Source of the DNA: Octopus vulgaris
Lineage: Eukaryota
Assembly: GCA_951406725.2 (NCBI GenBank)
Contig: OX597823.1
Coordinates: 6,572,001 to 6,636,000 of the forward strand
Length of the DNA stretch: 64,000 nt
Direction: 5' to 3'
Within the stretch, counting starts at the first letter, position 1. Each line of letters begins with the position of its first letter. Shown in pieces: positions 11,128 to 47,535 of the stretch. Under the pieces are notes generated by a model. That model was not told where the DNA came from, searched no databases, and was given only the letters and a program-made list of their open reading frames with translations. Made by a program: the position numbers and the translations under genes.

Positions 11128-11333
11128 TCAACTGAAGTCTGATAATAAACATTCAAGCGCCGTGAAACATTCCGTTTCTAAAAGAGCTTCTTTTAATGTT
11201 TGAGGTGTACGTTTCGCTGGATCGCAACCTCGAAACCATTTTAGAAGCATCTGAAAGCCTTGTTCCATAATGTTATAAGGATTGTCGTGCTTGATGATTT
11301 CCAGGTCATCTTGTGTAATTTCTAATTCCCTTC
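11128..11333 (-). CDS. Terminal coding exon 14, death domain ([33 protein letters not shown]...[11 protein letters not shown]...DFS*)
   Basis: tttgcag acceptor; death-domain signature REL.I...I..DNP....EQ...ML..W......L..AL; stop at 11128-11130. Confidence 0.92.
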
Positions 11334-47300: not shown

Positions 47301-47535
47301 ATTTTATTATAACATTAATGGCAATTAGAGGAAAGAGAAGAAGAAAGAAATGAAATATTATGGAGAAATATATGCAGTTAGTTTGAAGTTTTCAAATTGT
47401 GTATAAAATAATAAAGAAATAGGCAAATTTGAGAAAGCAATAAACAGAACAACTTACTTCGCCTGGCTTCTCCTCAATTAAGATTTTCAATCCTTCCACA
47501 TCATTAATTCTAATTTTATTAAAGATTGAGTCCAT
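11128..47535 (-). CDS. Spliced gene (14 coding exons, ~502 aa; ~485 aa if exon 9 is skipped): ankyrin-repeat / RING / TQT-repeat linker / death-domain protein, MIB2-like putative E3 ubiquitin ligase
   Basis: Exons 47458-47535, 40849-41006, 39912-39957, 35007-35161, 33997-34033, 30434-30643, 28570-28745, 26230-26369, 25045-25095, 23307-23384, 18892-18942, 16298-16348, 14185-14256 and 11128-11333 join in compatible phases into one open frame of 1509 nt. All junctions are GT-AG except the exon 9 donor (AT). Ankyrin TPLH motifs, an 8-ligand RING and a death-domain pattern are visible. Confidence 0.88.
14185..14256 (-). CDS. Coding exon 13, start of death domain ([24 protein letters not shown])
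   Basis: tttatttcag acceptor and GTGAGT donor; L..VS..L...W..L(G) is the death-domain helix 1-2 pattern. Confidence 0.88.
15060..15520 (-). mobile_element. Reverse-transcriptase fragment, R2/NeSL/Hero-type non-LTR element
   Basis: [16 protein letters not shown]...KAFMDDIKI (RT motifs 4-5). Confidence 0.7.
16298..16348 (-). CDS. Linker micro-exon 12 (51 nt) [17 protein letters not shown]
   Basis: tttatttcag acceptor and GTGAGT donor; phase 1-1; open. Confidence 0.85.
17200..18430 (-). mobile_element. Reverse-transcriptase fragment, R2/NeSL/Hero-type non-LTR element
   Basis: [15 protein letters not shown] motif; 3' part is homologous to 15060-15520. Confidence 0.72.
18892..18942 (-). CDS. 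Linker micro-exon 11 (51 nt) [17 protein letters not shown]
   Basis: tttatttcag acceptor and GTGAGT donor; phase 1-1; open; canonical KxTQT. Confidence 0.85.
19500..20800 (-). mobile_element. Degenerate DDE-type DNA transposase fragment (possibly Sola-like)
   Basis: [16 protein letters not shown]...[28 protein letters not shown] and an upstream Cys-rich CVCENHQH; superfamily uncertain. Confidence 0.6.
21110..22093 (-). mobile_element. RTE-clade LINE fragment (RT core to C-terminus)
   Basis: [57 protein letters not shown]...RGRPRKTW. Confidence 0.92.
22790..23053 (+). mobile_element. RTE-type 3' end with (GAT)n tail
   Basis: ccatgct...aacggacgttaaacgatgatgat tail, same as at 27030-27090 and, inverted, at ~59521. 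Confidence 0.75.
23307..23384 (-). CDS. Linker micro-exon 10 (78 nt) [26 protein letters not shown]
   Basis: tttatttcag acceptor and GTGAGT donor; phase 1-1; open. Confidence 0.82.
25045..25095 (-). CDS. Linker micro-exon 9 (51 nt) [17 protein letters not shown], non-canonical AT donor
   Basis: atttcag acceptor as in the sister exons and an open frame, but the donor reads g|ATGAGT rather than g|GTGAGT. Confidence 0.55.
26230..26369 (-). CDS. Coding exon 8, RING finger C-x2-C-x11-C-x-H-x3-C-x2-C-x7-C-x2-C
   Basis: (Q)[40 protein letters not shown]; cag acceptor and GTAAGA donor; MIB/IAP-type spacing; phase 2 to 1. Confidence 0.93.
28570..28745 (-). CDS. Coding exon 7, last ankyrin repeat ([58 protein letters not shown])
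   Basis: tag acceptor and GTAAGT donor; YLASQGA..N...TPLDL resembles the last Mind-bomb ankyrin repeat; phase 0 to 2. Confidence 0.9.
30434..30643 (-). CDS. Coding exon 6, ankyrin repeats ([24 protein letters not shown]...[10 protein letters not shown]...LLNE)
   Basis: Matches ORF 30422-30631; GTAAGT donor; two in-frame candidate acceptors (exon start 30643 or 30631). Confidence 0.92.
33997..34033 (-). CDS. Coding exon 5 (G)[12 protein letters not shown]
   Basis: ttactttcag acceptor and GTTAGT donor; phase 2 to 0 restores the frame; ankyrin helix 2. Confidence 0.8.
35007..35161 (-). CDS. Coding exon 4, ankyrin repeats ([20 protein letters not shown]...[12 protein letters not shown])
   Basis: cag acceptor and GTAAGT donor; two TPLH motifs; phase 0 to 2. 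Confidence 0.93.
35555..36565 (-). mobile_element. Two copies of a tRNA-derived SINE (approx 35555-36020 and 36118-36565)
   Basis: Head ggcgcagg.gtggctgtgtggtaagta..ttg...ggttccgggttca (A/B-box-like); same family at 39303-39400, 51005-51292, 56040-56310 and 62895-63290. Confidence 0.8.
36597..37050. repeat. Fold-back inverted repeat, ~225-bp arms, 7-nt loop, inserted in (TA)n
   Basis: gttgttgtatgttc...cagaaagttatggggaaaa gcccacg ttttccccataactttctg...gaacatacaacaac. Confidence 0.92.
37116..37509 (-). mobile_element. Non-autonomous Helitron (~394 bp)
   Basis: 5' TCTTTATATATAAAAG; 3' hairpin cccgagcaacgccggg followed by CTAG; inserted between A and T. Confidence 0.82.
37686..37944. repeat. 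Fold-back inverted repeat, ~119-bp arms, containing a hammerhead-like motif
   Basis: ttgcagcg...gaccgcgacctgtt / aacaggtcgcggtc...cgctgcaa with a ~21-nt spacer. Confidence 0.9.
37816..37866 (+). ncRNA. Candidate minimal type I hammerhead ribozyme, G3:C8 core variant
   Basis: TTTGTCA-GTGAACA-g-GTCGC(ggtctcaaa)GCGAC-GAAA-atat-TT-TGGCAAA. Confidence 0.5.
38303..38783. repeat. 107-bp minisatellite, ~4.5 copies
   Basis: Near-identical units starting at 38398, 38505, 38612 and 38719. Confidence 0.95.
39144..39296 (-). mobile_element. Short Helitron-like element
   Basis: 5' TCTCTTATTATAAAAG and 3' CTAG between A and T; no convincing GC hairpin. Confidence 0.45.
39912..39957 (-). CDS. Coding exon 3 (R)[15 protein letters not shown]
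   Basis: tttttactctcag acceptor and GTAAAT donor; completes ankyrin helix 2; phase 2 to 0. Confidence 0.88.
40028..40642. repeat. (CAT)n degenerate trinucleotide tract
   Basis: Visible CAT repeats; gives spurious poly-D/M/H/I ORFs. Confidence 0.95.
40849..41006 (-). CDS. Coding exon 2, ankyrin repeats ([17 protein letters not shown]...[14 protein letters not shown])
   Basis: cag acceptor and GTAAGT donor; GQTPL and GRTALH ankyrin motifs; phase 0 to 2. Confidence 0.92.
41040..43800 (+). repeat. ~2.75 kb polypyrimidine (CT/CTTT) tract with internal sub-repeats
   Basis: Nearly pure C/T; repeated ctctccctctcgttttctttttatccttcttcctctc units at ~42950-43600. Confidence 0.95.
44100..45720 (-). 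mobile_element. Degenerate RLE-endonuclease non-LTR retrotransposon (Hero/NeSL/R2-like), 3' part
   Basis: CRLCG zinc-knuckle remnant, then [24 protein letters not shown]...[10 protein letters not shown] (decayed PD-(D/E)xK RLE). Confidence 0.75.
46200..47070 (+). mobile_element. Degenerate CR1/Jockey-like RT fragment
   Basis: DYHPVILTS (cf. NYRPISLTS) and [11 protein letters not shown] (cf. LDISKAFDRVW). Confidence 0.6.
47090..47293 (-). mobile_element. tRNA-derived SINE, second family
   Basis: aaggcagcgagttggcagaagcgttacc...tcaaattccgccgaggtcga...ccccctcccccaaaatgtcaggccttgtgcct. Confidence 0.7.
47458..47535 (-). CDS. Coding exon 1: [26 protein letters not shown]
   Basis: Acceptor ttttattcag before 47540, ATG at 47535-47533, donor GTAAGT, phase 0. 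Looks like an ankyrin N-cap helix. An upstream coding exon cannot be excluded. Confidence 0.7.

Follow-up and report, generated by a model that had tools for sequence, protein, structure and literature searches.

Gene structure and domain organization

The window analyzed here is a stretch of 64,000 nucleotides of the Octopus vulgaris genome (assembly GCA_951406725.2, contig OX597823.1, positions 6,572,001 to 6,636,000 of the forward strand), and all coordinates below are window positions. Its minus strand carries a gene in which ankyrin (ANK) repeats, a RING, a linker and a death domain (DD) are joined. From the ATG at 47535 to the stop at 11128, 13 exons splice into a single open frame of 485 amino acids, and 12 of 12 introns have GT-AG borders. 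By inspection, the protein consists of an N-terminal cap with approximately seven ankyrin repeats, one C3HC4 RING, a linker of 60 residues and the DD.

Exon 1 (47540–47458, coding from 47535) encodes the ankyrin cap. The repeats are encoded by exons 2 (41006–40849; Pfam Ank, E 3.1e-8), 3 (39957–39912), 4 (35161–35007; Pfam Ank, E 7.1e-14), 5 (34033–33997) and 6 (30643–30434), and exon 7 (28745–28570) holds the last repeat, which is of Mind bomb (MIB) type. The RING lies in exon 8 (26369–26230). Exons 9 (23384–23307), 10 (18942–18892) and 11 (16348–16298) form the linker; exon 12 (14256–14185) encodes DD helix 1, and exon 13 (11333–11128) the remaining DD and the stop. When nine exon pieces were searched singly against Pfam, ankyrin was found in three and zf-C3HC4_3 in exon 8 (E 1.5e-7); exon 13 alone matched Death below the cut-off (E 0.014).

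From residue 79 onward, the model is identical to O. vulgaris CAI9728638.1 (P0008), in which Ank, the RING (zf-C3HC4_3, E 8.9e-7) and Death (PF00531, E 3.9e-6) all pass the Pfam cut-offs. The O. sinensis protein XP_029654696.1 differs from the model at 4 of 354 positions, one of them its start. In the AlphaFold model, the ANK, RING and DD folds are confident, and the linker has a confidence score (pLDDT) below 50. The original prediction of ankyrin repeats, a single RING, a linker and a DD in one frame is therefore confirmed by the 13-exon model, Pfam and AlphaFold.

The database model of CAI9728638.1 begins in intron 2 (39980–39912, minus strand), so it lacks exons 1 and 2. A second model, CAI9728639.1, reads into the intron after exon 9 (23306–23281, minus strand) and terminates without a DD. 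Several paralogue models end in the same way, either as a recurrent isoform without a DD or through an artefact of gene modelling. A possible exon of 35 nucleotides between exons 12 and 13 (13973–13939) was rejected because it would break the frame. The same positions belong to a conserved donor-like block that recurs in the cassette introns described below (13973–13939 and 18660–18618, minus strand) and lies outside the gene model.

An octopus family

Named relatives of the protein were all from Octopus in successive searches (7 of 7, 46 of 46 and 19 of 19). A profile search gave 217,682 matches, and 29 of the 150 listed were family members; 19 of these were new, all from O. vulgaris, O. sinensis or O. 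bimaculoides. The remaining 121 were long ankyrin proteins, which crowd the list. No squid, cuttlefish or older relatives appeared among the matches listed, and such relatives could have been missed, as word-seeded searches overlook distant kin. An Atlas search with the RING and DD gave no usable match. As far as the searches reach, the family is thus lineage-specific and expanded, as had been proposed, with all named relatives in three Octopus species. Since several members share contigs, tandem clusters are suggested. None of the listed titles and abstract openings describes the ANK-RING-DD family, a scope from which subscription papers and the supplements of genome papers are excluded, and the accessible sections of PMC10970066, PMC11463336, PMC8166818 and PMC13218726 hold nothing on it.

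Of 91 family proteins (isoforms included), 62 have RING and DD and 21 have RING and no DD; five of the latter have a second RING. Three O. vulgaris proteins (P0062, P0183 and P0221) have the same ANK-RING part followed by a third, unrelated tail, which in P0062 has no Pfam match. This suggests that modules are exchanged at the intron that follows the RING exon, or that the three are fused gene models. One model, P0002, contains two DDs.

The N-terminus

Neither MZM nor REP was found by Pfam in the 14 family proteins scanned, nor in 131 upstream minus-strand frames. The latter were taken from the 175 frames of at least 28 amino acids within the window after 44 low-complexity frames were left out; the scan does not extend to exons below 28 amino acids or beyond position 64000. 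Six of the 131 frames gave weak matches, all below the cut-off, including TRADD_N (E 0.045), and these were rejected as chance. A search for longer family proteins returned four matches from 191 candidates, none of them a MIB; the search was weak and failed to recover a true MIB. The exon 1 segment is present in 16 of 113 family proteins, and 13 of these 16 start within two residues of the same methionine. The Pfam scans and the shared start bear out the claim that the protein has no MZM/REP N-terminus. As a splice acceptor lies five nucleotides before the ATG, an upstream exon may exist, which most simply would be non-coding; none was found.

Origin from Mind bomb and replacement of the terminal RING

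MIB1 has the order MZM-REP-ANK-RING1-RING2-ccRING3, and MIB2 carries two RINGs. The best of 25 PDB matches to exon 7 is the last repeat of the human MIB1 ankyrin domain (PDB ID: 8V0E, residues 340–381; E 6e-5). Of 60 PDB rows listed, only MIB1 matched profile positions 3–123 in one stretch. A Foldseek search with the whole model was uninformative, as it recovered generic ankyrins, and the MIB1 ankyrin domain came at rank 31. Two sister clusters (XP_029652975.1 and XP_052830990.1) have the architecture ANK-RING-RING with neither MZM/REP nor DD. The terminal RING of one sister protein (XP_029652975.1, P0141) matches MIB1 RING3 with an E value of 9.5e-13. This terminal RING is absent from the window protein and present in 5 of the 91 family proteins, which belong to the two clusters. 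The RING of the window protein aligns with scores of 102 and 121 to the first RINGs of P0141 and P0156, versus 44 and 55 to their terminal RINGs. Its last ankyrin repeat directly adjoins the C3HC4 RING.

The exon 7 match, the MIB1 profile match and the RING3 of the sisters bear out the proposed Mind-bomb-like origin and indicate that the octopus family is derived from MIB. The earlier reading had the DD replace the Notch-ligand-binding module, and here the data disagree. Relatives without MZM/REP keep RING3 where the others have the linker and DD; judged by these alignments, it is the catalytic, dimerising end of MIB whose place the DD has taken, and the loss of MZM/REP was a separate event. 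The window protein is therefore MIB-derived yet outside the Mind bomb family, because two defining modules are absent. What it shares with MIB1 and MIB2 is an ankyrin block ending in the MIB-type repeat with a C3HC4 RING directly after it. It differs in having no MZM/REP, terminal catalytic RING or coiled coil, and in carrying a linker with QT motifs and a DD instead.

The order of these events is inferred. The two RING3 forms do not form one clade in the family tree, which has 48 rows, is unrooted and contains no MIB outgroup, and a single origin of the RING3 forms as an outgroup of the family, which we considered, is unsupported by this tree. Because the two forms do not group, either the tail was swapped more than once or the paralogues are mosaic. 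The direction from RING3 to DD would follow from the known architecture of MIB.

Short ANK-RING proteins, such as arthropod 'mib1-like' proteins of approximately 400 amino acids and plant clusters, also lack MZM/REP and are the top Atlas feature matches (0.93–0.94). They differ in that no Death domain is among the families shown for them.

The RING domain

According to the available text of one preprint, ubiquitin transfer and dimerisation by human MIB1 need ccRING3, RING1 and RING2 are inactive with UbcH5B, and the E2 is contacted by V965, M989, P993, I994 and R996 (10.1101/2024.03.01.582834). MIB2 is likewise reported, in the accessible part of PMC7815719, to depend on its second RING, with the first dispensable. 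The RING of the window protein, of the MIB first-RING type, keeps all eight zinc ligands in C3HC4 spacing. Its last pair reads CLRCL, versus CPICR in RING3, so that the equivalents of P993, I994 and R996 are L, R and L. The equivalent of V965 is hydrophobic. Three of the five E2-contact residues, including the linchpin arginine, are thus missing. Because of these losses and its first-RING type, ligase activity is doubtful for this copy, and the RING is probably inactive or a weak E2 partner. Of the E3 ligase in the original prediction, the RING with its full set of zinc ligands stands, and the activity is doubtful for this copy.

The family as a whole is more varied. Among 57 distinct family RINGs, 19 have the P-hydrophobic-C-R motif, five have the basic residue only and 33 have neither. 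The family thus appears to mix competent and dead RINGs, and about a third may be active. The 19 competent-looking RINGs count against a general loss of ligase activity and in favor of another explanation, in which the protein is an active E3 ligase delivered by its DD to death-receptor or Toll-type complexes, as an analogue of the bivalve BIR-DD-RING inhibitor-of-apoptosis proteins (IAPs). The nearest solved RINGs are those of cIAP1/2 and XIAP (E about 1e-3), which together with the intact zinc ligands is in line with this explanation. RIPK1 is ubiquitylated by MIB2, which reaches it through MZM and cannot bind it otherwise, as given in the accessible part of PMC5912950; a DD could therefore restore access to RIPK1-type complexes and supply the lost targeting. 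Oyster IAPs also combine a DD with a RING, and it is in Octopus that the IAPs have expanded least, as far as the accessible text of PMC8917759 goes. These bivalve proteins are likewise lineage-expanded molluscan proteins with an IAP-type RING. According to the same text, they differ in having BIR rather than ankyrin repeats, a DD that precedes the RING, a terminal RING and another ancestry. An active ligase would be compatible with dimerisation by LC8, which could activate the RING. Given that the first-RING type is inactive in MIB1 and dispensable in MIB2, and that L, R and L stand at the contact positions in the window copy, we regard an active ligase as rather unlikely.

The death domain

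The six-helix DD fold is supported by the PF00531 match above the cut-off, by a confident helical model and by DD structures as the top matches of a paralogue. The paralogue DD matched those of ankyrin-G, RAIDD, FADD, TRADD and RIPK1 with root-mean-square deviations of 1.5–2.2 and Foldseek E values of 2.6e-3 to 4.8e-3; no match reached E 0.001. The best match in both sequence and structure is ankyrin-G, a non-immune DD, which weighs against an immune role. The DDs of FADD, RAIDD, TRADD and RIPK1 score within a factor of two of it. Because all five score alike, ankyrin-type and immune DDs are not separable here; an immune role would be plausible.

The ankyrin-G match, together with ANKDD1A/B clusters among the Atlas neighbors, would also fit a non-immune scaffold, in which an ankyrin-type DD serves membrane or cytoskeletal assembly and LC8 links the protein to dynein-related structures. 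ANKDD1A/B and the ankyrins share the N-terminal ankyrin repeats and C-terminal DD. They differ in having no RING, the ankyrins have ZU5-UPA, and no MIB-type last repeat is shown for them. Rapid expansion and module swapping, both seen in this family, are more typical of defence families, and together with the near-equal scores of the immune DDs they leave a scaffold of this kind very unlikely.

The linker is an array of duplicated DD exons with QT motifs

The plain linker of the earlier description concealed a tandem cassette of five copies. Copy 1 (25095–25045), an exon of 51 nucleotides whose donor reads AT in place of GT, is skipped; copies 2–5 are exons 9–12. The cassette introns are 64–72% identical, and those flanking copy 5, which encodes DD helix 1, are 68–72% identical to those of copies 1–4. 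All copies are in phase 1-1 with lengths that are multiples of three. Across the family, 116 segments resembling DD helix 1 were found in 65 linkers, versus 26 (maximum 34) in 20 shuffles. Comparison of the copies indicates that the linker exons arose from the DD helix 1 exon by tandem duplication and shortening. In P0054, a near-full duplicate of DD helix 1 is found in the linker, an intermediate of the exon conversion. The linker of P0058 is made of Pro/Ser/Thr/Gln repeats.

Each linker exon carries a motif of the kind bound by LC8, a dynein light chain. LC8 binds motifs of 8–10 residues with an anchoring Q and a flanking T in disordered regions, as described in the accessible text of PMC12057147 and 10.1101/2023.09.15.557927. 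The window protein has three QT-anchored motifs of eight residues, spaced 17–26 residues apart: EDRCVQTE (exon 9), KDKETQTQ (exon 10) and EDKASQTE (exon 11). The skipped copy has an intact DEKGVQTV. The exon 11 site shares six of eight residues with EDKATQTL of Bmf, and a paralogue site shares seven of eight with SDKGVQTP of ZFPM1 (PMC12057147 DataSheet1, by eye). We used the pattern [DE][KR]x[TVIS]QT, which was chosen after the sequence had been seen. In the same data sheet, 9 of 62 measured-binder rows fit it by eye, all 4.7 or tighter. The 45 distinct linkers (2194 amino acids) contain 32 matches to the pattern, versus 0.075 expected from 1000 shuffles. It does not occur in 20,435 amino acids of family sequence outside the linkers, and it occurs three times in 296,536 amino acids of unrelated ankyrin proteins. 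The motifs lie in stretches predicted to be disordered (pLDDT below 50 at P0008 residues 265–303 and 306–320, and likewise in a paralogue).

The motifs also appear to have been retained. In DD helix 1, position −1 is L, and T is at +1 in none of 24 segments. If the copies had changed neutrally and as fast as the introns, the probability that all four in the window still match the pattern would be 4e-4. The Q and T are invariant with synonymous changes, and codon positions 1, 2 and 3 of the motif are 78%, 67% and 44% identical. The presence and retention of the motifs are thus clear from the alignments, and the motifs are putative LC8 sites. A complex prediction with an LC8 stand-in (four copies) and exons 10–11 (two copies) gave a median of 0.33 versus a mark of 0.34 and was not used either way. 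No LC8 match was found in viral contigs.

Several observations weigh against LC8 binding and against selection on the motifs. The linker units are related copies, so the motif counts are not independent. The strict motif is missing from 20 of 45 linkers, and the Q or T is kept in only 16–17 of 35 non-redundant units. The skipped copy keeps its motif, which fits a recent loss as well as retention without selection. For QT alone, the chance of retention is 0.03, and the simulation is based on a star tree and a post hoc pattern. The K at −3 and often the Q at 0 were already present in the DD helix. Many family units have V at +2, which is found in none of the 62 binder rows. These points could be explained if the protein were an adaptor or decoy with a DD, in which decaying exon copies serve as a plain spacer and the QT motif, a single chance event, has no affinity for LC8. 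Such a spacer would account for the half or so of non-redundant units without Q or T, for the members with no linker unit at all and for a skipped copy as intact as those in use. It accounts poorly for four copies that all keep the motif, with changes only within the permitted classes, while their introns have diverged by 33%, and for the near-identity to measured LC8 binders. We therefore consider a plain spacer unlikely.

The arrangement of several QT motifs along a stretch predicted to be disordered, with folded domains on either side, is shared with the multivalent LC8 clients ASCIZ, 53BP1, Chica, Nup159 and KIBRA/WWC; Bim and Bmf are single-site clients. The putative octopus sites differ in that each forms a separate frame-neutral exon derived from a helix of the folded DD.

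Splicing evidence

Exon joints were taken from contigs of four runs, for which an RNA source is no more than a guess, over the mapped region 10900–30800. Joints were found between exons 6 and 7 (28745/30434, one of four runs), 7 and 8 (26369/28570, two of four), 8 and 9 (two of four) and 11 and 12 (14256/16298, four of four). For exons 12 and 13, there is a short loose end of nine letters on exon 13 that matches exon 12 (one of four). Joint 23383/26229, which skips cassette copy 1, was seen in two of four runs. Other features count against use of these data for this locus: joints 9–10 and 10–11 are absent among the 15 joints listed of 16, paralogues cross-map, and at two exon borders the letters of the loose ends are of paralogue type. 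Because some of the loose ends are of paralogue type, the joints show splicing within the family, not at the window locus.

Introns are also covered throughout by the contigs. Together with the paralogue-type letters and the dead donor of copy 1, this could mean that the window gene is a silent or drifting duplicate and that the spliced contigs come from paralogues. An open frame across 13 exons and 36 kb, and the few differences from the O. sinensis protein, make this highly improbable.

RefSeq isoforms of one paralogue are 481, 464, 447 and 430 amino acids long, in steps of single 17-residue units, and retain three to one QT sites; these are RefSeq gene models only. The window locus may use the same control of LC8 valency by splicing.

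Proposed mechanism

We propose, with a probability of roughly 0.5, that the window gene encodes a MIB-derived, octopus-expanded DD adaptor that is dimerised by LC8 (DYNLL) and is not a Notch-type ligase, and that exon choice sets its valency. The exon structure, the domains, the origin from MIB, the position of the swap, the cassette duplication, the retained motifs and their predicted disorder are seen in the data; LC8 binding, dimerisation, an inactive RING, control by splicing at this locus, the partners of the DD and an immune context are inferred. In the history we envisage, MZM/REP would have been lost, and RING3 would have given way to a two-exon DD, joined at the phase-1 intron that follows the first RING. 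The DD helix 1 exon and its introns would then have been tandemly duplicated, and the upstream copies shortened and converted from helix to QT motifs. LC8 dimers would bind the motifs of two parallel chains and substitute for the coiled-coil/RING3 dimer that was lost. Paired DDs would be presented to a DD platform while the ankyrin repeats hold a target, and skipping of the frame-neutral exons would alter the number of LC8 sites. A fuller version adds to the RING3-to-DD swap and the LC8 exons born from a DD helix that splicing tunes the threshold of DD assembly and that ligase-active and ligase-dead paralogues act as enzyme and decoy; this version is possible but doubtful.

Domain shuffling is common in expanded invertebrate families; what is surprising here is that the catalytic RING was lost and that motif exons were derived from a DD helix. 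The automatic name 'MIB1/MIB2-like' is borne by dozens of octopus proteins that are not Notch ligases, which affects the reading of cephalopod expression data and octopus gene-expansion lists. If LC8 binding is true, a short linear motif was born from the exon of a folded domain, and multivalency is set by exon number. All stages, namely the intact helix exon, the shortened copies and a dead copy, are found in one stretch of 12 kb. Family members are also candidate regulators of DD signalling in cephalopods, in which such regulators are poorly known and IAPs are little expanded.

Surrounding sequence

Upstream of the gene, the window contains a tandem duplication of approximately 5 kb with 88–91% identity (49263–53009 and 54222–57858), with CpG-rich patches near 50501–50750 and 55501–55750. 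The promoter, or the non-coding first exon that is missing from the model, could lie there. Further on, an identical stretch is present in inverted orientation (58185–58436 and 58847–59098), possibly an assembly or transposon feature. A fragment of reverse transcriptase lies in intron 9 (21813–22037, minus strand; RVT_1, E 6e-4, below the cut-off), and a related piece is found near 60145–60523. Just past the 3′ end of the gene is a remnant of a PIF1-like helicase (9529–9774, plus strand; E 1e-9), probably a decayed Helitron.

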